Source: a virus (lineage: Duplodnaviria; Caudoviricetes). Taken from it: 64,000 bases of DNA. Every line of letters starts with the position of its first letter. Position 1 is the stretch's first letter. A program made the position numbers and the translations under genes. This document shows positions 1 to 56,625 of the stretch, in pieces. Under the pieces are notes generated by a model, which saw only the letters and a list, made by a program, of their open reading frames with translations, had not been told where the DNA came from and made no database searches. The DNA lies in the IMG/VR virus record IMGVR_UViG_3300020316_000005, positions 1 through 64,000 of that record. One strand, 5' to 3'.

Positions 1-693
1 ACCATCATCTGCCTTACGGCACTTAAATTTTCTCTTCTTAACTTTGCCACCCCTGCCTTTCGGTTGCTTAGCAGTACCACCAAGGGGTGCGTCCAGACCT
101 GCTGTGGGTCCATTCTCATCTGCACCTGCACTGAAACCAGCAGCACCATTAGCGGTGCCAGTATTCATAGTGGGTGCACCCTCTTCCTTCAGTTTCTCTC
201 TCCTCTTACGCTTGGCATAATCCATATAAGATTCACCAGGTTTCAGAGACTTACTGTAGTCTTTCTTGGGTTTGGATGATGAAGCACGGTCTTCACGAGC
301 ACGTTGGTTAGCACCAGGTCCACCCAACTTACGATCCTTATCTGGATCGGGATGCCAGAAATCACCACGTTCTTGAATGTTTTCTGTTTCCTGCTGCTTC
401 TTCACCTGACGTGCCAACTCTGCTTGAGCCATAGTGCTACCTACTTCCTTCGCAGTATTCTTGACTGCCTTCTTTGTGCTTTTGCCAACTGCTCTAACGC
501 CTTTGCCAGCAGCTTTGGTAGCAGCTACAGCACCTCTTGCTGCAACTTTACCAATCACCTTTGCGCCAACTGCCGCTGCCTTAGCAGCACCAGCAACGAC
601 AGGTGCAATCTCGTCGAGGTTCTGTTTGTTTTTATGAAATTCATCTACCTTTGTGTAAGGAGCATACAAAGGATAGTCGTAATTCTTACCCAT
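1..693 (-). CDS. Basic modular hypothetical protein, putative internal head protein (runs off left edge; not in ORF track)
   Basis: ATG at 693, frame open to position 1: MGKNYDYPLYAPYTKVDEFHKNKQNLDE-IAPVVAGAAKAAAVG...ENIQE-RGDFWHPDPDKDRKLGGPG...; Lys/Ala-rich with (L/I)xE sites. Confidence 0.75.
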   Translation of the reverse strand, partial: MGKNYDYPLYAPYTKVDEFHKNKQNLDEIAPVVAGAAKAAAVGAKVIGKVAARGAVAATKAAGKGVRAVGKSTKKAVKNTAKEVGSTMAQAELARQVKKQQETENIQERGDFWHPDPDKDRKLGGPGANQRAREDRASSSKPKKDYSKSLKPGESYMDYAKRKRREKLKEEGAPTMNTGTANGAAGFSAGADENGPTAGLDAPLGGTAKQPKGRGGKVKKRKFKCRKADDG

Positions 694-704
694 TTGAAAC
701 CTCG

Positions 705-1076
705 TTATAGTTCACTTAGTTGTTTACTAATGTGTGGATCAATTTCTACAAAGTCTAGCGTTCCACACCCCGCTTCGGGGTACATATTGAGATACAAAAC
801 ATATGTTTTGAGGATTTCCCAATACTGCTTCTCTAATTTATACACTAACAAAGGTATGGCAGCATCACCGAAGACATTGAACAACACAATTAAGTGGTTC
901 AATATCAAATGATTACGCAATACCCCAGTCTTTACATACCTTCCGAAGAGACGCTTCAAATATTTGAAGCGCATCATATCTTCTAGAAAATCATCGTATG
1001 TGACAGACTGGGGATTGTCATAATGTTTCATAGCGAACATCATAAAGTTGTCCGCTGTGAGACTACCAAAATGCAT
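705..1076 (-). CDS. Conserved T4-like cyanophage hypothetical protein
   Basis: 123 aa ORF in operon context; FAMKHYDNP...RFKYLKRLF...LILNHLIVLFNVFG recognised as a marine T4-like core hypothetical. Confidence 0.75.
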   Translation of the reverse strand: MHFGSLTADNFMMFAMKHYDNPQSVTYDDFLEDMMRFKYLKRLFGRYVKTGVLRNHLILNHLIVLFNVFGDAAIPLLVYKLEKQYWEILKTYVLYLNMYPEAGCGTLDFVEIDPHISKQLSEL

Positions 1077-1096
1077 AACAAATTATAGGTTAAAAA

Positions 1097-1882
1097 TCAA
1101 GAGACGAAAGTCAGAGTAGCAACACTACTTACGACTTCAGCAGCACCCTTGCTAGAGTTAATTTTAACTCTGTACTGGTTGCCGTCGTTAGCAGCAGTCT
1201 GTCCAGAGAGTACGAGAGATGCACTGGTTGCACCAGACACATTAGCGAATCTTCCAGCGGAAGATGTTCTCTTCTGCCACTGATAAGTGATAGTACCAGA
1301 CTGATCCACAGTTGCTGCGACAGTGAATGTTGCTGCACCCGAAGAAGTGTTCTGGTTAGCAGGTTGAGTACCAATAGTAATGGTCTCAAGCACGTCTGCT
1401 GCCACTGTTTCATCAGCAACGTCACCAGATGTACCTACTGCAACTCTAAGTGCTGCAAGTTTTTCTGCCTTATGACGTGTGGTTCCTTCTGCTGTGTTGT
1501 ATGTTCTATACAACCACCAACCAGGTCCATCGATGCCACGTGACTTGTTAGATGCAATACCATCTTCAGTGGTATCAACAAATACGAGTTGGTAATCAGA
1601 GTTGCTGTCGCCACCCTTGATCACATATTCTGCGACTGCTTTAGGGGGAGTTCTGCGGACTGCGCCAGACAGAGCAGCAGCGGTGCTACCTGCATAGTTC
1701 TTGTGCAGTTCGATAGAAGTTGTGCTATTAACTTGCTTAACGATGTACGCGACACCACCAAGTTCCAACACATCTCCAACTACTACTGTATCTGCAGCGT
1801 TCTTCGTAACAGTGGCATCGCCATTGGTGACGGCAACATTGTTAGAGAAGGTCGCGGCATCAATTTTTCCGAAGATTGCCAT
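1097..1882 (-). CDS. Virion structural protein with C-terminal Ig-like domain (Hoc-like decoration candidate)
   Basis: C-terminal ITIGTQP...FTVAAT...ITYQWQK...LVLSG...DGNQYRVKI Ig pattern; late promoter immediately upstream. Confidence 0.7.
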   Translation of the reverse strand: MAIFGKIDAATFSNNVAVTNGDATVTKNAADTVVVGDVLELGGVAYIVKQVNSTTSIELHKNYAGSTAAALSGAVRRTPPKAVAEYVIKGGDSNSDYQLVFVDTTEDGIASNKSRGIDGPGWWLYRTYNTAEGTTRHKAEKLAALRVAVGTSGDVADETVAADVLETITIGTQPANQNTSSGAATFTVAATVDQSGTITYQWQKRTSSAGRFANVSGATSASLVLSGQTAANDGNQYRVKINSSKGAAEVVSSVATLTFVS

Positions 1883-1918
1883 TGTTGTTTGTCCTCTACG
1901 ATTGAGTTTCCTATATGT

Positions 1919-1926
1919 TATTTATG
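1919..1926 (-). promoter_or_regulatory. T4-type late promoter CATAAATA
   Basis: Intergenic match to TATAAATA-like consensus about 37 nt upstream of the 1882 start. Confidence 0.7.
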
Positions 1927-1932
1927 TAAATG

Positions 1933-1958
1933 AAAAAGGGACCACTCGGGTCCCCTTT
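1933..1958 (-). terminator. Rho-independent terminator
   Basis: GGGACC/GGTCCC stem followed by a U-run on the minus strand, just after the 1962 stop. Confidence 0.7.
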
Positions 1959-1961
1959 GCA

Positions 1962-2165
1962 TTACTCGCCTTCGCGAGTGCGGACTGCTTTAGTCACTGC
2001 TTCAAGCAGTTTGTCATCCATATCTGTCTTAGTCAGTTTGACTGCTTTGCCAAGAATAACAAGGCAGATTTCGATCAGTTTGTCACCGAGTTCCTCATCA
2101 TCAGGAATCTTAGCGACAGCGGCGTCTACAATTTTGTAGGCGAAAGGGAGAAGAAATGATAGCAT
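1962..2165 (-). CDS. Small conserved hypothetical protein
   Basis: 67 aa ORF followed by a terminator. Confidence 0.65.
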   Translation of the reverse strand: MLSFLLPFAYKIVDAAVAKIPDDEELGDKLIEICLVILGKAVKLTKTDMDDKLLEAVTKAVRTREGE

Positions 2166-2199
2166 AGCGATACACCATATGGGTCTATCTTATATATGC

Positions 2200-2934
2200 T
2201 TATTTCTTCTTCTTTGAGGTATCCATAATGGCACCTTTGCCATACTTCTTCTCGATCTCACCCTTTACGATGTCCAGAGCGGAAGGACCATCCTTCTTCT
2301 TGGGCATTGGTTTGGGTTGAGTGCCACCAGACCTAGCGGTGTAGCGACGATTACCAGCAGATCTATAACCTGAGCCATACCTCTCAAGTTTGCGATCACG
2401 CATCCTATCGTACTCTTCCTCGTTGATGTGCTCAACTTCTTCGCACTTAGACTCCTTTGACTTGCGCTTTGCTGCTGCTTTAGCAAGCAAACGCTTTCTT
2501 GCTGCTTCCTGTTCTTTCTTAGGAATAGAAGTGACGGCACCAACTTTCTGGTCCACATCACCAGGAGCATACCCTTCAGGGTACATTGTCAAACCACGCT
2601 CATTTTTTTGCTTTTCTCTATGAGCATCAGCATCTGCTGATTTCTTATTTTGTTTTTTGGTAGTCTGCATCCTCACATACTTACCATCACCCTCATTGCT
2701 CTTAGCACCTCTCTTCTGCTTCACACCACGGGCAAAATGATGCATAACTCCCATAGGACGAGAAGATTTACCCTCTTCAACCTGCTCAACCTCTTCTACG
2801 TTGAGAGTCTTGGGATAATCCTTCTCACCAGGACGAGCAGGACGTTCACCACGCTTACGCTTGGCGTGGATGTTTGCCCACAAACCTTTCTTCTTACCCT
2901 CATCGAGGGATTGGTATTCAGAGAAACTATACAT
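2200..2934 (-). CDS. Basic modular protein, putative gp21-processed internal head protein
   Basis: N-terminus [13 protein letters not shown]; alternating acidic (V/I)xE linkers and Lys/Arg-rich modules. Confidence 0.7.
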   Translation of the reverse strand: MYSFSEYQSLDEGKKKGLWANIHAKRKRGERPARPGEKDYPKTLNVEEVEQVEEGKSSRPMGVMHHFARGVKQKRGAKSNEGDGKYVRMQTTKKQNKKSADADAHREKQKNERGLTMYPEGYAPGDVDQKVGAVTSIPKKEQEAARKRLLAKAAAKRKSKESKCEEVEHINEEEYDRMRDRKLERYGSGYRSAGNRRYTARSGGTQPKPMPKKKDGPSALDIVKGEIEKKYGKGAIMDTSKKKK

Positions 2935-3383
2935 CAGTGCTTGTGCGATGCTTCGAGGATGATCTCAAGATCTTCAACAGCAACGTTCTCGTGAATGTTA
3001 CCTTGCTCATCAATGAGATCGTAATGAGTTACGAAATGGGTGTTACCATCTGCATCAGGTTCTGCCAACTCCACCAAGGTGTGTTGCTCAGGGATGGTTT
3101 GGCAAACGCCATACTCAGCGTGCTCACAGTGTGATGCACAGATATGAGTTTTCTTACCCATTGCTTTAGAGATCGTCTTACGACGATTCAGCAGGTACTT
3201 GTCAGACTTATCGTGGTCACCGTCATTGTCGATGTCCTTGTCTTCTTTACCCACAGGATCCAGACGCTTCTTGGATGCTTCTTTCAGGGTTGCTAATTCT
3301 GCAGCGAGCAGTGTGCGGATGGATTCTTTCATCAGATCTTGCTTTTTAGGGTTGATAATAATCTTAGTTTTCTTGCCCATCAC
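2934..3383 (-). CDS. Hypothetical protein with DxDxDG motif and His/Cys-rich domain
   Basis: [14 protein letters not shown]; HICASHCEH...THYD; coupled to both neighbours. Confidence 0.7.
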
Positions 3384-4909
3384 TTACCAAAGTTAGGGAA
3401 TGCTTTCTTGAAGACTTCGGATGCTTCCTTATGCTTACCTTGGTTAGTAAGTTCTTTGGACTTGGCAAGTGCAGCTGCCTTTGCCTTCTGAGCAGGGGTC
3501 TTCTCTTCGATTTGCATACCGAGACGATCTCTCCAGGAGATGCCTTCGGGATCGCGAAGTGTTGTCTTGTCGTGGTCTGCGGTTTCCTGCATTGCAAGAA
3601 CGCGGCGGACACGATCGGTGCGTGATTCCATAGATTGTTCTCCAAGTTTACGTGCAACTTTGTCGGATCCAGAGGATACTGCACGTGCCGTCTTGCCGAC
3701 GACTTTCTTGATGCCTCTACCCACAGCGCCAACTGCACGGCGGAGGAGAGACTTCTTCTTAGTACCACCTTCCTTAGCACCACCAGTAGAAGTGGGAGCG
3801 GAAGAGGAGGAACTAGATGAACCAGAGGAACTGGAGGAACCACCAGAAGAACTAGAACCAGAAGAAGATGAGGATCCACCTCTAATAGACTTTAGCAAAC
3901 CATCAAGTTTGCCACCAGTCTTATCTCCATCTCCTGATTTTGCTTCAGGTTTCTTTGCTGCGGGTTTCGACTTGCTCAACCCATCACGCTTTGCTTTGAT
4001 TCTCGCTGCTTGGTATGAACCAACAGCGTGACCCGCTGCTTTACCAGCGGCACCAATAGCACTCTTAGCACCAGACTTAACTGCTGCCTTTACTTTAGGT
4101 GCTGCTTTCTTAGCAGCTTCGCCTGCCTTGGCAGCACCAGATTTAACTGCTGCACCTGCCTTAGAGGCACCAGACTTAAGAGCAGAACCAACACGACCTG
4201 CGGCAGATTTCAGACGCTCAACACGCTTGCCTCTTGCAATGCGCTTTGCGCTATCCTTAGATGCCTTAACGGCAGAATCGTAATAGTCCTCAGAGAGAAG
4301 TTCCAGTTCACCAAACATTTCACACGCTTCTTGCAGCAGTGCTTCGTCTTCTAGGTCAACCAGTGCTTCAACAATGATGTCTTCCAGATCTTCGTCAGTG
4401 AGACTGTCGAACTCTTCCTGCAGTTCGTCAACCAGATCCCACATCCATTCTTCAGATTCCTTGACACAGTTAGGAACTTCTTTACCGTCCTTCATCTTAG
4501 TGCCTTTGGCTTTGTAACCATCCCAGCACTTGCCTGCGCCAACGTTCTTACGTGCTTGCTTGAGACCTTCTTCGATCTCATTTTCTTCACAGCAACTCGC
4601 AACAGGTTTACCCTTTGCTTTTACAGAATTCTGAGTTGCAGTGACAGGACCCTCTGTAGATCCCTTTTCTTTTACGGTGTCAATTTTGCCTGACGCATCG
4701 GAAGGCTTTGCCTTAATGGTTGCCATATTCCGATTCTCAAGAATGACATCTGCGATGCCGATGAGACGATCAGACTCAAGGTGCTCCTTGATATAACCGT
4801 GGATAGCATCACCAGAGAAGTTGTGCTGAGCGTAGTCTACGACATATGTTACACGCTGCACATCCTCAGGAGGAAACGCTACCAGTTTACTAGCAAGATT
4901 GATGTCCAT
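3380..4909 (-). CDS. Large modular acidic/basic protein, putative prohead core or internal protein
   Basis: 509 aa; acidic helix block, KCWDGY...VPNCVKE module, Ala/Lys-rich region, poly-Ser linker; late promoter upstream. Confidence 0.75.
3800..3880 (-). repeat. Gly/Ser low-complexity coding repeat
   Basis: [29 protein letters not shown] in the 509 aa ORF. Confidence 0.7.
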
Positions 4910-4936
4910 TCTTTACTAACCGTTTTTTTCGTAATA

Positions 4937-6088
4937 CTATTTAGACTTTCGGAAGTCGCTGAATTTCTTCACCGACTGACCAGGAGTCATTTCCTGTACT
5001 GCTTTTCTGTATGTATCAGTGCCAACTTTCCAATCGTTACCACTGCCATCATCAGCAGAATGATGCTTCTCCTTCTCAGTTACCTCAGCAATGTGCTGCA
5101 ACCAACTCTTAAACACATAACCTTCTGCGGTCTCGTAGATCACATAGTTTGCACCACGGACCGTGACTGTACCACGGACACCTGTGTCCATATGCTCAAC
5201 CAGTTGACCAACCTCAAACACATCTTTCTGGAAGTATGCTTCGCGGAGATCTTGTTGTGCAAGTTTAGGAGCAATCTCCCACATCTCAGCAGCAACCTGT
5301 TCCTCCTCAGAAATACCCATACCCTTACGGACCTCATTCATCAGGCGCTTTGCAATGGCAGCGTTGCCACCAGGAACTCCTTCCGTGAATGACTCAAGAT
5401 CACCTGATGCAGCAAACGCTCGCATCTTAGATGCAGACATACCTTCTACACCTTCAGCATCTGGGTCACGATCGCCAGCAGAAACAACATTGAGTTCTTC
5501 AAACTCATATGCCTGACCATTATATTTCTCAAGGAGAGATTTGAATTCAGAAACGCGATCAGATCCAACAACCAGAGTAACACCAGTGTAACCCTCGTCC
5601 TGAAGTGCCACCATCACATTGAAGATGTTGGACATACCACTGTCATTGACGATTGCATCCGAGTGACTCGGGTACATCTCGTTCATAAACTTAACCTTAA
5701 TTTCAGGTTCCAGCGGATTCTTCTTAGGATCAACCGTACGAGAAGGATAGATGCGATAATTATCAACACCTTCCTTTGCCACAGCATCCAGAAGTTTCTC
5801 GTGCCCAATAGTAGGCGGGTTGAAACGACCGAATGTAATCGCCACAGTTCCTAGACCCTCACCACTTGTGAGATGAGCATCTTCTTGGTCTCCTTGTTCG
5901 ACACCCGCTTGTGCTGCTTGTGCCTCACTTTTATCCACAGCAACTAGGCGCTGACCTTTTTCAGACTTAGCAACAATGTTGCCACTTCTATCAGCATAGT
6001 AACCGTGACCGACGTGTTGAAGTCCACGTTTCGCTGCTGCGTCACCCGCAACAGTCCTTGCTTCAGACAGGAACTCGGTGAATTTCAT
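4937..6088 (-). CDS. HIGH-superfamily nucleotidyltransferase (cyanophage 'cytidyltransferase')
   Basis: TFGRFNPPTIGHEKL (HIGH-like), VVGSDR, MSASKMR (KMSKS-like). Confidence 0.85.
   Translation of the reverse strand: MKFTEFLSEARTVAGDAAAKRGLQHVGHGYYADRSGNIVAKSEKGQRLVAVDKSEAQAAQAGVEQGDQEDAHLTSGEGLGTVAITFGRFNPPTIGHEKLLDAVAKEGVDNYRIYPSRTVDPKKNPLEPEIKVKFMNEMYPSHSDAIVNDSGMSNIFNVMVALQDEGYTGVTLVVGSDRVSEFKSLLEKYNGQAYEFEELNVVSAGDRDPDAEGVEGMSASKMRAFAASGDLESFTEGVPGGNAAIAKRLMNEVRKGMGISEEEQVAAEMWEIAPKLAQQDLREAYFQKDVFEVGQLVEHMDTGVRGTVTVRGANYVIYETAEGYVFKSWLQHIAEVTEKEKHHSADDGSGNDWKVGTDTYRKAVQEMTPGQSVKKFSDFRKSK
4938..4945 (-). promoter_or_regulatory. Late promoter TCTAAATA
   Basis: Overlaps the upstream gene stop, about 29 nt before the 4909 start. 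Confidence 0.6.
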
Positions 6089-6111: not shown

Positions 6112-6119
6112 TATTTATT
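6112..6119 (-). promoter_or_regulatory. Late promoter AATAAATA
   Basis: About 24 nt upstream of the 6088 start. Confidence 0.7.
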
Positions 6120-7311
6120 AGCCCCAATTCTTCTCTACCGTGAAATTAGCGCGGGAGAACTCCAAACGATCAACAAGTTTTAGGGCAGAACCTGATTTGA
6201 TCGCTACAAAACCTTCTGGTGCAGTCACTCTGAAACCTTTATCTGTTTTGATATAAGTTCCAATATCTTTGACTGCTTCCAACCTGCGGATGACCATAGT
6301 CTTCGCTTGGGTTAAGTTCATATATGAAGCAACAGTCATATATATCGCTTTAGAATTTGCCTTGATGAACTTAAGACCGTCAGATTGGATCTTACGATAC
6401 TTGTTCTTAGTGCTCTCAGTCTTCTTAGTAGAGATCTCTTTGTCCAGTGCAGACTTATAGTATGCAGCAAACCCAAGAGCAACTTGCTGCGCGGAACTCA
6501 TCGACACACCTCTGCGGATGTAGGTGTTGAAGTACACTTTGAACATAGCAGACAGCAGGAACTTACCATCTCCAGTCTGCTTAAGAACATCCAGGAACTT
6601 GGATGCCTGCTTGAGAGAACCTTCTGCTTTGTTTACAGCAGCATCATAGTCACGCTTCTGCTTATCAGTGAAGGTAGATGCTCCAGTAGTATCAGTGAAG
6701 TTAGAAGAGAACACAGCAACGCTATTCACTTTCTTGAAAGCATTAACATTAACACCAAAACTAGCAGTCATATCACGCAGTTCAGGACCACCAGTATAAC
6801 GAGTGTGAAAAACAATACCGATATTAGCGTTTGCAACCTTCTTACCTATTTCACTCTTCTGGGGAACAGCATAGGTGATAGTGTTTGGTTGGAAGATATT
6901 ACACACTTCACCATTCACCTTGTGAGTTTTCACATCACCTTTAGTGAACAGAAGATCTCCCTGTACCACACCAGTGATACCTAGTTTGGGAAGTTCACGA
7001 AGACAAGTCTTGAGTTTGTTTGCCAGTTCACCACTGTAGAGAAGGTCAACATCCTTATCACTCATACAGATCTTGGGAGTCTTAGCAAATACACCCTTGG
7101 TGCCAACAAAAAAATCTTTAGTCTCAGGATGCTGACCACAGATAACAGCGGGTGCACCATCCCACTTGGTAGTAATACGGATACCAGAGTCAGGTTCAGA
7201 CAGCATCTTGCCAAGTTCACGGAGGAATGCAATAGCGTTCCTGCCTCCATTTGAACCTTGGTTCAGGATGTCGTCTTCTAAGTGTTCTAGGTGAGTGTTC
7301 TGCTTTGCCAT
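6118..7311 (-). CDS. DUF6267-type protein with ATP-dependent ligase / covalent nucleotidyltransferase motifs
   Basis: NTHLEHLED N-terminus; TTKWDG (KxDG), VQGDLLF, PEGFVA, LKLV. Confidence 0.7.
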   Translation of the reverse strand: MAKQNTHLEHLEDDILNQGSNGGRNAIAFLRELGKMLSEPDSGIRITTKWDGAPAVICGQHPETKDFFVGTKGVFAKTPKICMSDKDVDLLYSGELANKLKTCLRELPKLGITGVVQGDLLFTKGDVKTHKVNGEVCNIFQPNTITYAVPQKSEIGKKVANANIGIVFHTRYTGGPELRDMTASFGVNVNAFKKVNSVAVFSSNFTDTTGASTFTDKQKRDYDAAVNKAEGSLKQASKFLDVLKQTGDGKFLLSAMFKVYFNTYIRRGVSMSSAQQVALGFAAYYKSALDKEISTKKTESTKNKYRKIQSDGLKFIKANSKAIYMTVASYMNLTQAKTMVIRRLEAVKDIGTYIKTDKGFRVTAPEGFVAIKSGSALKLVDRLEFSRANFTVEKNWG

Positions 7312-7317
7312 ATCCTA

Positions 7318-7375
7318 ATTATAGCGCGTGATGGATGACTGTCCCCGTAGAGTGGACAGTTTACCAAGGGTCCCC
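7318..7375 (-). promoter_or_regulatory. Early-type promoter: dyad GGGGACC-N10-TGTCCAC, 28 nt, TATAAT
   Basis: Same architecture at 27897-27956 and 30103-30161. Confidence 0.55.
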
Positions 7376-8266
7376 TGACATCTTCAGACTGCTGGCAAGT
7401 TTCTCAGACTCGTACTTGAATCTCATCTTCAGGATCTTCTTTGATCCTGCCTTGACACCAATAGAATCGTTACCAACTTTCTCAAACCCAATCTTTTCAG
7501 TCATAATCGCTTCCAGTTTAGGGTTGTTGAGAGGATCCTCCACTTCAGCAGTGAATGGTGCCTTCCTACCTTTACCAGTTACCTTAACATAGGGAGGGAA
7601 TAGTTCTGTACTAGCATCAATCCAACCCCTCATAATATAATCCTTGCGATCTTTCTGTGCCATTGAGTTCAACTTCGTAAGCATAGCGTCTCTACACTTA
7701 TTCAGAACTTCAGAACCCATCTTATCAGTCTGCATCTGAATCGCTTTCGCTCCTCTGATAGCAGACTTCCTAGCACTAGCAGATGTCGGTAACTTAAAAA
7801 CTTTTACGACTTCATCTGTAGCATCTTTATTAAACTTTGATAGGGCAATACCCAGATCTTTTTCTACAGTACCAACACCAGGGTTCTTGAAACCAATATC
7901 ACCTTTACCAGATGTAGACTTAGCAGAGAGACCTAAGAATCCACCTCTAGTAAACTTAACTAGAACATCAGTTGGATTCTTTTTCTGGTCAACGTCTGTA
8001 CCAGTTACTTGCTTAAAAGAAAACCCAGGACGTGCTGTCCAATAAACATTTTGTACACCACTATATCCATTTTTCCTTGCCCACTTCAAAAATTCTTCTG
8101 CCATTACAGCGGCACGACCAATCTGCTGACTACCTTGATCTGCAGTTAGTAGTGCAAGTTTCTTGGTGTACTGTGCCTCAGACGCAGTATCAGGAAACTT
8201 ATTTTCGTTGAGGGCAAACGCAGTGTAAATCTCATTTACATCTGCTAGGTCTGTATTGGCAGGCAT
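7361..8266 (-). CDS. Putative PD-(D/E)xK-fold endonuclease
   Basis: VNEI helix, NPTDVLV and GLSAK (SxK variant) motifs. Confidence 0.55.
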   Translation of the reverse strand: MPANTDLADVNEIYTAFALNENKFPDTASEAQYTKKLALLTADQGSQQIGRAAVMAEEFLKWARKNGYSGVQNVYWTARPGFSFKQVTGTDVDQKKNPTDVLVKFTRGGFLGLSAKSTSGKGDIGFKNPGVGTVEKDLGIALSKFNKDATDEVVKVFKLPTSASARKSAIRGAKAIQMQTDKMGSEVLNKCRDAMLTKLNSMAQKDRKDYIMRGWIDASTELFPPYVKVTGKGRKAPFTAEVEDPLNNPKLEAIMTEKIGFEKVGNDSIGVKAGSKKILKMRFKYESEKLASSLKMSGDPW

Positions 8267-18693: not shown

Positions 18694-19478
18694 TGGATAT
18701 TCCCGAGATCAACATCAAGGGTAAGGATATTGGTGAGATCCGAATCCCTAGTGTGCCTGATTATCTGTTGGATCCACCCACAGCGGTCCCGATCTATCCG
18801 CCTGTAACAACACAGGTAGGTGTGCCTATCGTAGACATCCCTGGCTGTGTAGAAGCACACGAACAAAATAGTGATAGGGAAAGGAGTGGAATATTATCTG
18901 ATGATGATCCTAAAGGTGTCAAAGTATATTGTGATGCAGGCGTACCATCATTCAATCCTATTGACTACAACGCAGGTAAGTTGAAGTGGTCTGGTGAAGC
19001 AGAAGTTCCACCAGTTAAACCACCAGAAGCACCAGAAGCAAATGCACCCGAGATCCCTAAGGATGCAGCGGGTGCAGTTATCAAGTGTCCTACAGAAGCA
19101 CAGCAACTAAAAGAACCTGTGGGTACGTTGGTGGATTCTGGTAAGAAGAAAATTGTTGAATATAGATTGATCGGTCAGGAATGTATTCCTATTAAAGAAG
19201 ATCTGAAAATACCTGATCAGATCATTAAAGCAATCCCGTCAGCAGGACAGGTCACAACTACAGCATCGATTGCTGTTGTGGCAACTGCCGCTGCTACAGC
19301 GACACCTCTTTTGTTGAAGGTTGTTAAACCAATAGTCAAACAGATAATCAAGAAGGTTCAAAAACTATTAGGTAAAGAACCTCCCAAATTATCCAGACTT
19401 GAGATACAAACTAATACTTATCGTGAGAAAAAAGGAATGTCTCCTTTGAAGTTTGGTGCGAAGAAAAAGAAAAAGTAA
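18693..19478 (+). CDS. Pro-rich protein with Cys pairs and C-terminal membrane anchor
   Basis: TAATG coupling; GCVEAH/YCD and KCP/ECI; hydrophobic ASIAVVATAAATATPLLL followed by a Lys-rich tail. Confidence 0.75.
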   Translation: MDIPEINIKGKDIGEIRIPSVPDYLLDPPTAVPIYPPVTTQVGVPIVDIPGCVEAHEQNSDRERSGILSDDDPKGVKVYCDAGVPSFNPIDYNAGKLKWSGEAEVPPVKPPEAPEANAPEIPKDAAGAVIKCPTEAQQLKEPVGTLVDSGKKKIVEYRLIGQECIPIKEDLKIPDQIIKAIPSAGQVTTTASIAVVATAAATATPLLLKVVKPIVKQIIKKVQKLLGKEPPKLSRLEIQTNTYREKKGMSPLKFGAKKKKK

Positions 19479-23835: not shown

Positions 23836-24122
23836 AGGATTAGTTTCTTTTTATCGGGTGTTTTGATGGCAGAGAACATCTCTTTGTACTGATCAATAAT
23901 ACCGTCTTGAGTATCAAGCAAGTATACCACGTAAGACTTTGGAATGGTAATCTCAGTACCACCTTTCTTAATGATAGGTGCCCAAGGAGCAAAACCAAGA
24001 GTACCTTGTCCGCTAGGGATAGCAACGATAGGGTTCACAATCGTGATACTCTCATCGTCTTCTTTAACAACGTCGGTGACAACATCTTCACCAGACCACA
24101 TACGAATAACTTTTACATTCAT
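23832..24122 (-). CDS. Hypothetical protein (Sm-like fold candidate)
   Basis: VKVIRMWSGEDVVTDV...GFAPWAP. Confidence 0.7.
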   Translation of the reverse strand: MNVKVIRMWSGEDVVTDVVKEDDESITIVNPIVAIPSGQGTLGFAPWAPIIKKGGTEITIPKSYVVYLLDTQDGIIDQYKEMFSAIKTPDKKKLIL

Positions 24123-25060
24123 TTGAATTGACACCTCATCATTAGTTCAGTTAAAAACGCCACCAGGTTGATCTCGTGATCGGCAACGAAAGCAGACTTG
24201 TACTGGTATTCACCGATGACAAGAACTGCTTCAGGAATAGATTGGGGTTGAAAATGCGTGTAGAGACTATCATAAATGTTCCTCATAATTTGAGTAGGTT
24301 CGTGATCGAGATTCTGCACAACCCATTTCTTCATCTTAGTAAACTCCTTATTCTTCAGGAAAGTTACAAGGTCATCAAGTTTAGTGTCAGATACAACACT
24401 AAGAATGCCAGTGTCAATCTTACCAATGGAAGAATAACGTTGGAGTTCATTCAGAGTCCGACGAAAGTCGGGGAAATACTTTTGGACTAGCGCCGCCAGA
24501 ACGCGAGGTTCGGCATCGACTTTGTTTTCTTCAAGGATGGACTGGACACGCTTGAAAAAGTTTGCTGCGAGTTGTTGCTTTTCTTTTCCGTTGATTGCAA
24601 ACTCGATAACAGAACATCGACTGTGGAGCGGTTCGATGATTTTGTTTTTGTAGTTGCAGGTAAAGATAAATCTGCAGTTGTTGCTAAACTCCTCAATAGA
24701 CGCCCGTAGGAGGAGTTGAACATCAGGGGTTGTGTTATCTGCCTCATCAATGATGATGACTTTGTGTTTAGCAGATGACGCAAGCGATACGGTTGAAGCG
24801 AAGTTCTTCGCATTGTTTCTGACAGTATCGAGGAATCGACCTTCGTCGGATCCGTTGATGACATAATAGTCTGCTCCAAGTTGTTCGCAAAGTGCTTTAG
24901 CGACAGTGGTCTTGCCGATACCTGGTGGACCAGACAGGAGGAGATTTGGAATCTCACCCTTGTCCACGAACTTGTTCAGAACACTCTTAATGTTCTCAGG
25001 CAGAATGCAGTCATCCACAACACGCGGACGATACTGCTCACACCACAGGAAACCACTCAT
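24119..25060 (-). CDS. g44: Clamp loader large subunit gp44
   Basis: WCEQYRP, GPPGIGKTT, IIDEAD, SRC. Confidence 0.97.
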   Translation of the reverse strand: MSGFLWCEQYRPRVVDDCILPENIKSVLNKFVDKGEIPNLLLSGPPGIGKTTVAKALCEQLGADYYVINGSDEGRFLDTVRNNAKNFASTVSLASSAKHKVIIIDEADNTTPDVQLLLRASIEEFSNNCRFIFTCNYKNKIIEPLHSRCSVIEFAINGKEKQQLAANFFKRVQSILEENKVDAEPRVLAALVQKYFPDFRRTLNELQRYSSIGKIDTGILSVVSDTKLDDLVTFLKNKEFTKMKKWVVQNLDHEPTQIMRNIYDSLYTHFQPQSIPEAVLVIGEYQYKSAFVADHEINLVAFLTELMMRCQFK

Positions 25061-38893: not shown

Positions 38894-40240
38894 TCACATA
38901 AGGTTGTCAACCAGAACACGTCTGTAGTAACGGTTAGCGTTAGCGGTGAGTGCACCACTACCCTGGGAGGTACCTTCTGCGAAGGGGTTAGCAACGAGAC
39001 CGTATCTGGTCTTGAAGCCGATCTTCGGCTGGAAGGTGTCCTGACCAACGGCGCGAACCATCTGCAGAGGCACGTAAGGGCAGTAGAAGAGACCTGCGTC
39101 ATATGCACTGCTACCTTTGTAACCTGCCACATAGAAGTGACGGTCAGAAACGTTAGCAGAGTAAGGATCGACGTAGACCTTAATACGACCGTTAAGAGTA
39201 CCTGCGAGGGTGCTGCTGTTGTCGTCGGGGAGCAGGTTGCTGTTACCAGCAAGTGCGGGGGTGTAGTCAAGAACACCAGCCATAGACAGAGCAGATGCCA
39301 CATCAGCGGAGCAGATGAGGATGTTGCCCTTTCCACGACGAGTCTCGTGACCGATTGCGTTCATATCTCTCTCAATCTGGAAGAGGAGACCCTTGAACTT
39401 CTCAACAGACCAGCGACCGTTGGAGTCAACGTCGAGGTCGAAGATACCTGCAGTTGCAGTGTTGTTCTGAGCGCCAGGACGAGCGATCTTGTAGACAGTT
39501 CTAACAACTTCTCTGTTGATCTCAGCGAGAACTTCAGTAGAAAGGATGTTAGCGAGTTCGCTCTCAGCATCCAGACCGTGAACTGCTTTCAGGTCTTGAG
39601 CAAGTTCCAAGCTGTACTCAGCTTTCAGTGCTCTGGACTTAGCAGTCACAGTGACCTTCTCGATGGAGAAGTTCATTTCTGCGAACTGGTTACCTGCAGC
39701 ATCACCCAGTGCTTCTGCCTCGGCGGTAGGCATACCGTCGGAGGTGTTGTAGGTGCCGCTGTCGTTCAGCAGACCAGGGTTGCTACCTGCCTGAGCAGTT
39801 CTACCCAGATCAGATGCTGCGTTCTCTGCGGAGAACTCGGTGTCTGCCTCGTTGAAGAATGCTTCAGTACCAGCAGTACGGTTGGTGCCATAACGGGAGC
39901 GCATTGCGAAGATCAGACCAGTAGGTCCAGTCATCGGTTGCACACCTGCGATGTCATAAGCAATCAGCTTAGGCATCGAACGGCGAATGAGGCTAATCAG
40001 AACGGGGTCGAAACCAGCAACAGGACCAGTTGCAGTGGAAGAACCACTGAAACCAGCAGTGCCAGCAGACATTGTAGGTGCTGCTTCAGTCAGCACGCCA
40101 CGCTCTTCAGCCAGGAACTTTTCTTGGTTTTCAAGCAGGACTGCGGTTACCGCTTTCTTATAGCTATCCTTGATGGAATCAAGACCTTCGCAATTAAGAA
40201 CGGGGGACCACTTTTCCTGCAGATGCTCGGATTTGAACAT
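38894..40240 (-). CDS. g23: Major capsid protein gp23
   Basis: LLENQ, GVQPMTGPTGLIFAMR, EINRE, FYCPYVP, KTRYG; VLTE-A cleavage site. Confidence 0.99.
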   Translation of the reverse strand: MFKSEHLQEKWSPVLNCEGLDSIKDSYKKAVTAVLLENQEKFLAEERGVLTEAAPTMSAGTAGFSGSSTATGPVAGFDPVLISLIRRSMPKLIAYDIAGVQPMTGPTGLIFAMRSRYGTNRTAGTEAFFNEADTEFSAENAASDLGRTAQAGSNPGLLNDSGTYNTSDGMPTAEAEALGDAAGNQFAEMNFSIEKVTVTAKSRALKAEYSLELAQDLKAVHGLDAESELANILSTEVLAEINREVVRTVYKIARPGAQNNTATAGIFDLDVDSNGRWSVEKFKGLLFQIERDMNAIGHETRRGKGNILICSADVASALSMAGVLDYTPALAGNSNLLPDDNSSTLAGTLNGRIKVYVDPYSANVSDRHFYVAGYKGSSAYDAGLFYCPYVPLQMVRAVGQDTFQPKIGFKTRYGLVANPFAEGTSQGSGALTANANRYYRRVLVDNLM

Positions 40241-41334: not shown

Positions 41335-41985
41335 TTACAGAGTTTTAAGGAACTGAGAAAACGCGGAAAGTTTGCGCTCTTCCAGAACTGCTCTGTTAGG
41401 AGCATTGTCAATACTCCTTTTAATCGTTGCAACTTCGGACTCTCTAATGATTCCGTTGTTCCAGACCCACTCTTTACCTTCCATAATTCCGTTCACAAAT
41501 GCGTCAGGAGCAGAAGGATCAGCAACAATATCTGCTGCTGTAGCGAGCATAAAGTCGTCGGCAACGATCTTTACACCTTCACTGGAGGTTTGCAGTGAAC
41601 CAATGCCACGAGAAGAAACGCCAAGTTTGACGCCTTCATCGAGAAGATTCTTTGCGATGTTACCCATAGGTGTATCAAGGATGCGTGCACGTCCCTTGAA
41701 GTTATTTCCTTCCTGAACCAGGGAGGTGATAACGTGGGAGACACGATCCAAGTTGACGGTAGGACCGTCGGGATGACCCAGTTCACCAAGAGCGCGACCC
41801 GTCTTAATGAATGATTCATTATATTTAGCGACTTCGCGAGCAAGTGTACTGATGGGATACATCCGACCATTGCGGTTTTTGATCTCACCTTGAAGGAAAG
41901 TACCTTCAATGTACAGACGCTTCTTACCGTTCTTTTCTTCGGTTAGAAGTTCAATGTCTTCAATCGTTTCCGTGATCAGTTTCAT
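41335..41985 (-). CDS. g21: Prohead protease gp21
   Basis: MKLITE, GELGHP, GVSSRG.GS, DIVADPSAPDA. Confidence 0.97.
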   Translation of the reverse strand: MKLITETIEDIELLTEEKNGKKRLYIEGTFLQGEIKNRNGRMYPISTLAREVAKYNESFIKTGRALGELGHPDGPTVNLDRVSHVITSLVQEGNNFKGRARILDTPMGNIAKNLLDEGVKLGVSSRGIGSLQTSSEGVKIVADDFMLATAADIVADPSAPDAFVNGIMEGKEWVWNNGIIRESEVATIKRSIDNAPNRAVLEERKLSAFSQFLKTL

Positions 41986-55368: not shown

Positions 55369-55806
55369 TTAGCACTTCCACTTTCTAAGTGCGAGTGCTT
55401 TACGTGTTGGTTTCCCATTTTCGTCCTTCATTGGACCTTTCATACCACCCATACGGGCACAGAAAGATCTCTTACGAGGACCACCTTCGGGTTGAGGTGC
55501 CTTCAAATCTGAACCAGGGTTCTCTCTTTCATAGGACTTACGTCCTTTCTCATTCAGACCACCAGAAGGATTCTTTCCTTCTTTGCGCTGCCAAGCACTT
55601 TCCTTGACATCAGCAGCTGCTTTTCCAGAATACTTTCTCTTTGAATTACGTTTCGCTGTATCGTCAATCTCTTTCATTTTAAGAGCGTGACTCATTTTTC
55701 TACGAATAGACGGTCTACCAATAGGAGGATTAGTCCTATCAATAACACGTGCAACCTTTAGGGCTACACCCTCGTCAAATTCGTGGAACTCAGCGAAAGT
55801 CTTCAT
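55369..55806 (-). CDS. Basic protein with capsid-targeting-like N-terminus and DUF6321-like module
   Basis: MKTFAEFHEFDE-G; VKE-SAWQRKEGKNPSGGLN...SFCARM...LRKWKC. Confidence 0.75.
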   Translation of the reverse strand: MKTFAEFHEFDEGVALKVARVIDRTNPPIGRPSIRRKMSHALKMKEIDDTAKRNSKRKYSGKAAADVKESAWQRKEGKNPSGGLNEKGRKSYERENPGSDLKAPQPEGGPRKRSFCARMGGMKGPMKDENGKPTRKALALRKWKC

Positions 55807-55946
55807 TGTTCTTGATTATGTTTTGGGTTAGAGGGGCAGTTCTCTTCGTGCTTCTCAATCCAAGTTTTAGGACGCCAATGTCCTTTGGGAGAAGTCAGAC
55901 CGCAATACTGACACACATAAGTGCCATCTTCACGTCGTTCAGCCAT
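55803..55946 (-). CDS. Small C2HC zinc-finger protein
   Basis: YVCQYC...HEENC; start trimmed to MAERRE. Confidence 0.6.
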   Translation of the reverse strand: MAERREDGTYVCQYCGLTSPKGHWRPKTWIEKHEENCPSNPKHNQEQ

Positions 55947-56625
55947 AGTGAAATTTCCTGTCTTTGGTTTTCTTAGGTAGTTTAGCAGATCGTACCTTCG
56001 TGGATGACGTTTCGCCATACCCTTCAGGATGTTTTCCGCCTTTTGCCTTACCGATGGAATCAGACTTAGCCTTACTTCCTTTCTCGGTATAATGTAGTTT
56101 AGCATCTTTTCCAGGCTTTTTGGTAATCACGGATTCTTGACCGTGCTTCCTACCCAGACGACGCATCACTTTACCAAAGCGGCGTCTCGACATCTTATCA
56201 GGTTTGGACGTGTGATATGAAACCTCACGACCAGTTTTACCGTCGGCATACTTGTATTCACCGACGCCTTTCTTGTGTCCGATACCGTGCTTCTTGAGAT
56301 CTTTCTCAAGACTCTTACGCTTTTCACGGTTCTTCTTCTCGTCAGAACCACGGTCAGCAGAAATGTGTCCAGTATCTTTTTTCTTTGCTTTGTCCATTGC
56401 ACGTGCGAGACCACCCTCAGCAATGAAGGTTCCGAACGGCATCAAGTAGGACTGAGTTTGCATCATCATATCCGTGCTACCTCCTCTTTGGACAGTCTTT
56501 CTTTGTAGTTGTAATCTTCTCAAGTTGAGCATCAGTTGCCTACGATCAAGCATCTGCTTTTGCTTCTTAACTTGATTACCAGCACCACCTTTTTGTTGCT
56601 GTTGTTCTGGTTGATTTTCCATCAC
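55939..56625 (-). CDS. SAM lyase (T3 SAMase)-like domain behind a capsid-targeting-like propeptide
   Basis: ISADR...N...GEY...EVS...GQESVI...AKLHY pattern; MPFGTFIAE-G. Confidence 0.6.
   Translation of the reverse strand: MMENQPEQQQQKGGAGNQVKKQKQMLDRRQLMLNLRRLQLQRKTVQRGGSTDMMMQTQSYLMPFGTFIAEGGLARAMDKAKKKDTGHISADRGSDEKKNREKRKSLEKDLKKHGIGHKKGVGEYKYADGKTGREVSYHTSKPDKMSRRRFGKVMRRLGRKHGQESVITKKPGKDAKLHYTEKGSKAKSDSIGKAKGGKHPEGYGETSSTKVRSAKLPKKTKDRKFHYG

Follow-up and report, generated by a model that had tools for sequence, protein, structure and literature searches.

What is encoded by four putative late genes at the end of a marine phage contig, and could their products be cargo that is loaded into the head and released there by the prohead protease? 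The DNA examined, hereafter the window, is the first 64 kb of the 109,882-bp contig in IMG/VR record IMGVR_UViG_3300020316_000005. All of its DNA and protein matches are to Synechococcus/Prochlorococcus myoviruses, identifying the virus as a T4-like cyanophage of the Kyanoviridae, and genes for gp20, gp21, gp22, gp23, tail sheath and tail tube are recognizable. Kyanoviridae are among the most abundant ocean viruses. An earlier note on this sequence had proposed that four open reading frames (ORFs), referred to here as the 509-aa, 149-aa, 244-aa and 693-1 proteins or genes (Table 1), are shuffled cassettes that are packaged in the prohead and cut by the gp21 protease into many small basic peptides. 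All four ORFs were present as described, and every junction string quoted in the note was found in the translations.

We favor, at a probability of about 0.6, the reading that this cluster is the cyanomyovirus counterpart of the T4 internal-protein (IP) system in an enlarged and modular form, i.e. cargo that is packaged in the head and processed by gp21. The mosaic architecture, the boundary motif with its lineage restriction, the late promoter-like sites and the presence of relatives in virions come from the sequences or from published data; location within the head, cutting at the junctions, ejection, and a DNA-neutralizing or counter-defense role are what we infer. The position of the gp21-type recognition motif at module boundaries is strong evidence and the number of motifs per protein weak evidence.

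The putative cleavage motif at module boundaries

Matches of the four proteins to PHROG families were patchworks with pieces of up to eight families each, and some of these pieces bear the name 'cytidyltransferase' only because relatives are fused to that enzyme. A tblastn search of 50,697 phage records never covered more than ~40% of any of the proteins, and a Pfam search found no family for any of the four ORFs. The patchworks, the partial coverage and the differing module orders described below agree with the proposal of shuffled cassettes, and the modularity of the four ORFs is real.

Four modules (A to D) were used as anchors. Degenerate DNA patterns lying inside each module, with the linker excluded, were scanned over IMG/VR and the frame upstream of the matches was read. 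Internal module copies were counted as junctions and scored for [LIVM]xE ([LI]xE for module A) within 10 residues upstream of the anchor (8 residues for module B), and windows of the same proteins served as background. Module D (WHPDPxKD) was preceded by the motif at 65 of 71 junctions (92%) compared to a background of 12%, with the Glu exactly 4 residues before the Trp in 59 cases. The corresponding values were 66 of 110 junctions (60%) versus 22% for module C (DPVGxEDxDxDNDG, also given as DPVGKEDxDIDNDG), 22 of 48 (46%) versus 8% for module A (GLWANIHAKRKR), and 7 of 8 versus 14% for the cyanophage subtype of module B, such that enrichment over background before modules A-D was 2.8- to 7.9-fold. 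Control motifs ([LIVM]xD/K/Q and [AGST]xE) occurred at 0-1.3 times background except for [AGST]xE before module B (2 of 8, 2.3 times). When related upstream contexts were collapsed, the motif was kept in 22 of 36 for module A, 18 of 21 for module D and 33 of 63 for module C. The converse pattern, E.[LIVM], was likewise enriched upstream of modules D, C and B.

Module orders A>B, B>A, B>C and A>D were all found, each joined at an xxE sequence. In addition, two variants of the cytidylyltransferase encoded next to the four ORFs (P0013, 500 aa; P0014, 533 aa) carry module D (GDFWHPDPDKDRKLGGPGAN...) in their C-terminal tail directly after I-N-E, an arrangement that shows apparent insertion of a module into a conserved core gene. 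These anchor-based counts bear out the prediction that homology boundaries in relatives coincide with (L/I/V/M)xE. A recognition motif that appears at unit boundaries above background is what would be expected of a protease-released polyprotein.

The number of motifs in each protein was less informative. Counts of [LI]xE were tested by whole-protein and 15-residue local shuffles, and 100 ORFs were ranked. Local-shuffle z values were 2.97 for the 149-aa, 2.65 for the 693-1, 1.44 for the 509-aa and 0.22 for the 244-aa protein (ranks 4, 6, 21 and 48), and the gp22 scaffold, included as a positive control, gave 3.63. The motif frequency is thus only moderately raised and is not clearly higher than in some non-virion proteins, a comparison that the earlier note had suggested as a test. 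As the signal was moderate and unspecific, [LI]xE density was not used as main evidence.

Lineage restriction and free-standing modules

The internal module A junctions carried the motif in 22 of 28 loci with other cyanomyovirus genes versus 2 of 19 other loci (Fisher p 5e-6), a comparison weakened by the fact that the 'other' loci may include short cyanomyovirus contigs. This split suggests that the motif travels with the lineage having a gp21-type protease. The cyanophage subtype of module A differs downstream as well (GERPAKPGDKDYPKTL vs IKAGSGEKMRKPG), and descent and function, i.e. subtype and linker, are therefore confounded.

Both module A and the CWDGY..VPNCV core of module B occur widely in contigs of marine viruses. 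The former is mostly a free-standing ORF of ~50 aa that starts M-(basic)-GLW and has no acidic leader (54 N-terminal instances), and in L331 and L343 module D forms an 85-aa ORF with a leader in front. Together with the varying orders, these ORFs show that the units are autonomous elsewhere. ORFs of ~50 aa and of the M..KKGLWANIHAKRKRIxAGSGEKMRKPGSKGAPT type are very common in marine contigs showing no cyanomyovirus genes; they were seen in IMG/VR loci L002-L120, sometimes two per contig (e.g. L010:3799-3827 and 4834-4862).

The gp21 protease and the predicted products

T4 gp21 cuts after L/I-x-E (PMC9026906). The phage has its own gp21, which is 43% identical to T4 gp21 and is the presumed processing enzyme. 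The sites that the earlier note had read in gp23 (VLTE/A), gp22 (EVTE/A) and gp21 (LITE/T) were all confirmed in the translations. LITE/T of gp21 aligns with T4 LIE-9, and the gp23 sequence G-VLTE/AAPTM aligns column for column with the T4 maturation site GSFLTE65/A66, so that the gp23 LTE/A site is positionally conserved. The phage thus encodes a gp21-family protease, for which L/I-x-E specificity is predicted.

The 509-aa protein contains module B (4463-4567), followed by an acidic, [LI]xE-dense spacer (4289-4462), a basic core rich in Ala/Lys and Ser/Gly with a charge of +35 (3638-4288) and, after QIEE, the basic tail. The spacer has 5 sites in 60 residues and in this respect resembles the scaffold gp22. 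LLSE/D(Y/R)Y is kept in the window, S-SM1, S-IOM18 and S-SZBM1, and Syn33 has VLSE/EKT. In the 244-aa protein, module A lies at about 2794-2898 and the C-terminal module after HINE/ is common to Syn33 gp186. The 693-1 protein has a 28-aa leader ending NLDE/ and then an Ala/Lys-rich module, followed by NIQE/ and module D (RGDFWHPDPDKDRKLGGPGAN; 184-369), and by KLKEE/ and a copy of the mature gp23 N-terminus (82-183). A match of the Ala/Lys-rich part to SseC (23.9 bits, cut-off 30.2 bits) was dismissed as compositional. The start of the 149-aa gene is more likely the ATG at 3380, within a TGATG overlap; a single-sequence AF2 model of the 149-aa protein had a pLDDT of 34 and was uninterpretable.

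Cleavage at [LI]xE would yield acidic 9- to 28-residue leaders, three strongly acidic pieces (-8, -5 and -4) from the 509-aa spacer, and ~2-4 basic polypeptides per gene of 40-217 residues and +5 to +35. Overall, leaders and spacer pieces would carry -1 to -8, and the pieces between sites mostly +5 to +35, with a few near neutral. This would parallel T4, where acidic peptides from the scaffold exit the head whereas the basic proteins are retained (PMC9026906). The expectation of many small basic peptides did not hold, as the predicted cuts give fewer and larger products (40-217 residues).

N-terminal leaders

The T4 capsid targeting sequence (CTS) is MKTYQEFIAE (PMC8442874), of which residues 4 and 7 are needed for targeting and residues 8 and 10 for processing (PMC9026906). 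The clearest CTS-like leader was found on the neighboring cytidylyltransferase, outside the span given by the earlier note, where MKFTEFLSE/A lies at 6062-6088. Among the 120 best cytidylyltransferase homologs, 99 fit the strict leader pattern, and ~113 of 120 start M-K-(x)-[FLY]-x-x-F-[LI]-x-E-[AT] when mis-called starts and L/Y variants are allowed. On the contig, a CTS-like pattern was fitted by 4 of 104 N-termini versus 4 of 536 internal Met positions. Where module D is N-terminal, it is preceded by a leader ending xxE in all eight cases (e.g. MKTFKQFITE/AGDYW).

Of the four ORFs, only that of the 244-aa protein has a leader that is approximately CTS-like: the 509-aa and 149-aa proteins do not fit the pattern, and the 693-1 protein fits it only loosely through its NLDE-ending leader. 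The 149-aa-position homologs in S-SM1, Syn33 and S-IOM18 begin MLSFKELQE/KKTK. We also note a 62-aa acidic ORF outside the window (contig 109207-109395, minus strand) that starts MKRFEFLCE, in which F-L-x-E is spaced at positions 6-9 as in the cytidylyltransferase leader.

Virion proteomes of relatives

The cluster is syntenic in S-SZBM1, Syn33, S-IOM18 and S-SM1. Virion data for S-SM1 were taken from Sullivan et al. 2010 (Table S8; PMC3037559) and matched to genes by GenBank notes. The numbers of virion peptides were 25 for the GC190 cytidylyltransferase, 10 for GC1454 (SSM1_191), 7 for GC1455 (SSM1_192), 17 for GC426 (SSM1_197), 17 for GC425, 12 for GC1453, 60 for GC403 and 13 for GC119 (PMC3037559). 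In the S-SZBM1 virion proteome genes 139 and 140 were detected, the former being, like SSM1_191, syntenic to the 509-aa gene, and in that of S-CREM2 ORF154-156 were detected. GC426 is the positional homolog of 693-1. Homologs of the cytidylyltransferase are in virions of all three phages. Purified virions of relatives are thus reported to contain syntenic homologs of the cytidylyltransferase and the 509-aa protein as well as of the products encoded at the 149-aa and 693-1 positions, with peptide numbers similar to those of gp22, gp20 and gp13. Absence from virions, an outcome that would have spoken against the proposal, is not what the S-SM1, S-SZBM1 and S-CREM2 proteomes report for these relatives. 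The lengths of the GC119 and GC190 genes vary widely among 16 genomes.

Virion association has been published since 2010; the literature searched describes neither the leader, nor the junction motif, nor module shuffling, nor a reading of these proteins as processed head cargo, and the module strings were not found in it. Within the portions of this literature that were accessible, nothing linked cyanophages with a capsid targeting sequence, save a T4 review containing both terms.

To our knowledge, no role has been assigned since 2010 to this conserved set of Kyanoviridae virion proteins, including the core 'cytidylyltransferase'. The cargo reading would give these genes a concrete, testable hypothesis, would extend the T4 internal-protein paradigm to shuffled module strings, and would explain the extreme length variation of the genes.

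Proposed pathway and related systems

The probable late operon carries the gene of a nucleotidyltransferase that has a T4-like capsid-targeting leader and, behind it, translationally coupled genes for mosaic proteins. In these proteins small modules of 40-220 residues, most of them basic, alternate with short acidic linkers ending (L/I/V/M)-x-Glu. These proteins would be co-assembled into the prohead core. The gp21 protease would then remove the leaders and cut accessible inter-module sites, gp23, gp22 and gp21 carrying the same motif. Acidic leader and spacer pieces would exit the head, and the basic modules and the enzyme would remain with the DNA, probably accompanying it into the cell.

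If this pathway is correct, cyanophages would inject charge-neutralizing peptides and enzymes first, and these could act before phage gene expression. The conserved leader could tag foreign proteins for loading into cyanophage heads, as the CTS does in T4. We suggest only tentatively that the head protease might be a general release mechanism for a large, freely recombining mini-protein library, in which any small module placed behind (L/I)xE in a CTS-led late gene is loaded, freed and injected. Under this more speculative reading, heads could be programmed to deliver dozens of basic peptides as well as enzymes (nucleotidyltransferase, SAM lyase), from a module library common to unrelated marine phages, in which the units are encoded by separate genes.

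The proposed system resembles T4 IPI, IPII, IPIII and Alt in its probable late expression, basic products, homologous gp21 and the presence of relatives in virions. Some of its proteins also have a T4-like leader of ~10 residues, with aromatics around positions 4 and 7, L/I-x-E at 8-10 and then Ala; such a leader is clearest on the cytidylyltransferase and is present on the 244-aa protein and on a 145-aa protein of a second locus described below. An enzyme (Alt in T4, the nucleotidyltransferase here) stands alongside small basic proteins in both cases, with packaging presumed for the cyanophage. However, T4 IPs are single units cut once, whereas here there are several units per ORF with the motif at internal joints; moreover, most ORFs of the cluster have no canonical leader, and the mature parts have no sequence homology to IPI-III.

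Multiple cutting is known from the giant phages phiKZ, 201phi2-1 and SPN3US, in which a gp21-related gp175-type protease cuts many head-internal proteins, of the inner body and ejection type, after Glu (S/A/G-x-E) at several sites each, and propeptides with redundant sites are removed and the cargo retained (PMC9026906). The cyanophage differs in that P3 is L/I/V/M, the capsid is much smaller, the cargo is not homologous, and the units are short shuffled modules that also exist as free-standing genes. Within cyanomyoviruses, T4-GC190, 1454/715, 1455, 426, 425, 119 and 403 (Sullivan et al. 2010) are the same genes by synteny and partial similarity; they are annotated as 'virion structural protein' or 'hypothetical'.

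Alternative explanations

Several results weigh against head cargo processed by gp21. Three of the four ORFs begin without a T4-type leader (MDINLASK..., M(M)GKKTK... and the 28-aa leader in 693-1). The published proteomes of S-SM1, S-SZBM1 and S-CREM2 report no cleavage product, neo-N-terminus or gel mobility, and proteomes of relatives can separate neither inside from outside the head nor cut from uncut proteins. The density of [LI]xE is undistinctive for two of the four ORFs, and rank 1 of 100 belongs to a 313-aa ORF (24119-25060) that lies outside the structural module and has no annotation here. Junction counts were obtained from related sequences and are not independent events, and in module D [LIV]xE varies so little that it could belong to the module's structure. 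An all-versus-all BLAST test of HSP boundaries among 159 module-bearing ORFs, a heterogeneous set with fuzzy HSP ends, gave only 1.6- to 1.7-fold enrichment, with some controls as high. Finally, the same modules work as small free-standing proteins in phages with no xxE, so that cleavage is not needed for module function in general.

The main rival explanation, which we consider rather unlikely, is that the proteins are virion-associated but uncut between modules, acting as intact, largely disordered, polyvalent basic proteins (DNA-binding or head/neck accessory). At most, the N-terminal leader would be removed where present, and (L/I)xE would belong to an acidic helical linker or to the module fold. 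Such proteins would appear in virion proteomes as the ordinary proteins that are reported, each T4 internal protein receives a single cut, beside the CTS (PMC8442874), the nearly invariant [LIV]xE of module D looks like a structural residue, and the E.[LIVM] enrichment before modules D, C and B suggests a longer acidic/hydrophobic linker pattern. What argues against this reading is that four unrelated modules have the P3/P1 pattern in common, with no enrichment of [LIVM]xD or [AGST]xE, that module A lacks the pattern in non-cyanomyovirus loci, and that the acidic spacer of the 509-aa protein has a gp22-like cluster of five sites within 60 residues. The modules could also have accumulated as mobile ~50-aa basic genes fused by stop loss in a hyperplastic region, with products that need not be in the head and with xxE linkers inherited with one cyanophage sub-lineage per module, through common descent and recombination rather than protease recognition. 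The repeated recovery of relatives from purified virions, the diversity of upstream contexts (36 clusters for module A, 63 for module C) and the fact that the same motif ends N-terminal leaders too make this improbable, even though marine viral contigs very often have modules A and B as separate ORFs or in another protein setting, GC119 and GC190 vary so much in length, the TGATG overlaps show how easily such genes split and fuse, and linker and subtype are confounded for module A by its downstream differences.

We regard it as highly improbable that the proteins form a scaffold-like prohead core (analogs of gp22, gp67 and gp68) that gp21 degrades and that is largely lost from the head, so that it would serve neither as cargo nor as effector. 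The relatives' peptides in mature virions are similar in number to those of gp22, gp20 and gp13, and the large basic pieces, being free of sites, would remain in the head; this outweighs, in our view, the likeness in motif density between gp22 and the acidic, helix-prone, site-dense segment of the 509-aa protein, and the effect of T4 IPIII on head morphogenesis (PMC9026906).

Genetic organization of the cluster

Nearly all genes are carried by the minus strand. The four ORFs are split over two transcription units (Table 1), each preceded by a T4-type late promoter-like sequence (AATAAATA and CATAAATA). In unit 1 the cytidylyltransferase gene is followed by the 509-aa, 149-aa, 244-aa and 67-aa genes, with a gap of 27 nt between the first two and TGATG stop/start overlaps between the 509-aa and 149-aa genes (3380-3384) and the 149-aa and 244-aa genes (2932-2936). 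Fusion of the 149-aa to the 509-aa ORF by frameshifting was considered and set aside, as the junction is an ordinary TGATG overlap. The 67-aa ORF, which is acidic and shows no module features, is the final gene of the operon in all isolates examined. In unit 2 the order is the head protein gene, DUF7207 and ORF 693-1. The window contains seven copies of the ATAAATA heptamer, every one on the coding strand, and the gp20 and gp22 starts likewise have one 30-44 nt before them. As the heptamer is shared with gp20 and gp22 and all of its copies are on the coding strand, the label 'late' given to the cluster is reasonable on the basis of the promoter consensus.

Table 1. Positions in the window of the mosaic genes, their neighbors and associated features
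Feature	Position	Strand	Remarks
Late promoter-like AATAAATA, T4-type	6112..6119	-	24 nt before cytidylyltransferase ATG
HIGH-family cytidylyltransferase-like (T4-GC190)	4937..6088	-	First gene of unit 1; PHROG 395; Pfam PF01467 below cut-off
509-aa mosaic protein	3380..4909	-	N-terminal region, module B, acidic spacer, basic core, basic tail
149-aa protein	2934..3383	-	Basic N-terminal helix, TLKE/ then module C (3150-3278), Cys/His-containing beta-rich C-terminal part
244-aa protein	2200..2934	-	Net charge +24; leader, module A, further basic modules, HINE/, C-terminal module
67-aa ORF	1962..2165	-	Last gene of unit 1; PHROG 402, T4-GC424
Terminator-like hairpin	1933..1955	-	GGGACC-cgagt-GGTCCC then TTTTT; direct sequence reading
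Late promoter-like CATAAATA	1919-1926	-	37 nt before 1882 start
Virion/head protein	1097..1882	-	First gene of unit 2; PHROG 613; positional homolog of T4-GC425/934
DUF7207 protein (T4-GC198)	705..1076	-	Conserved cluster member without module features
693-1 mosaic protein	1..693	-	231+ aa; C-terminus lost at contig end
gp23 major capsid protein	38894..40240	-	VLTE/A site
gp21 prohead protease	41335..41985	-	Presumed processing enzyme; PHROG 207
Second basic-protein locus	55369..56622	-	After gp16; ORFs 55369-55806 and 55939-56622

A gp23 mimic and a second locus

Residues 171-204 of 693-1 (minus strand) are a copy, at 50% identity (E 1e-5), of the gp23 site together with ~30 residues from the N-terminus of mature gp23. 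GC426 virion proteins of S-SM1, Syn33 and S-IOM18 begin with a gp23-like segment, and their genes lie two genes upstream of the gp61 primase. In T4, a 58-aa frame near gene 61 (19011-19127) matches T4 gp23 residues 57-95. The 693-1/GC426 proteins are thus like the T4 gene 61.1-type mimic in copying their own phage's mature gp23 N-terminus and, in isolates, in lying near the primase gene, and 693-1 differs from it in that other basic modules come before the copy in the same protein, with KLKEE just ahead of it.

The second basic-protein locus encodes a 145-aa basic protein that starts MKTFAEFHEFDE/G and carries a AWQRKEGKNPSGGLNE/KGRKSYERENPGSDLKAP module, and a 227-aa basic protein with an internal MPFGTFIAE/GG, which may mark a true start or a cut site. 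Their S-SM1 positional homologs are GC403 and GC119, both virion proteins. SSM1_115 carries module D and an AW(Q/T)RK..GGLNE/KGRKSYERENPGSDLKAP module (E), and its CWKGY stretch can be read as B-like.

Directly upstream of the late operon is a gene for a DUF6267 protein (397 aa, 6118-7311, minus strand). A 301-aa protein without a family match (T4-GC71 position; 7361-8266, minus strand) is also encoded upstream of the operon.

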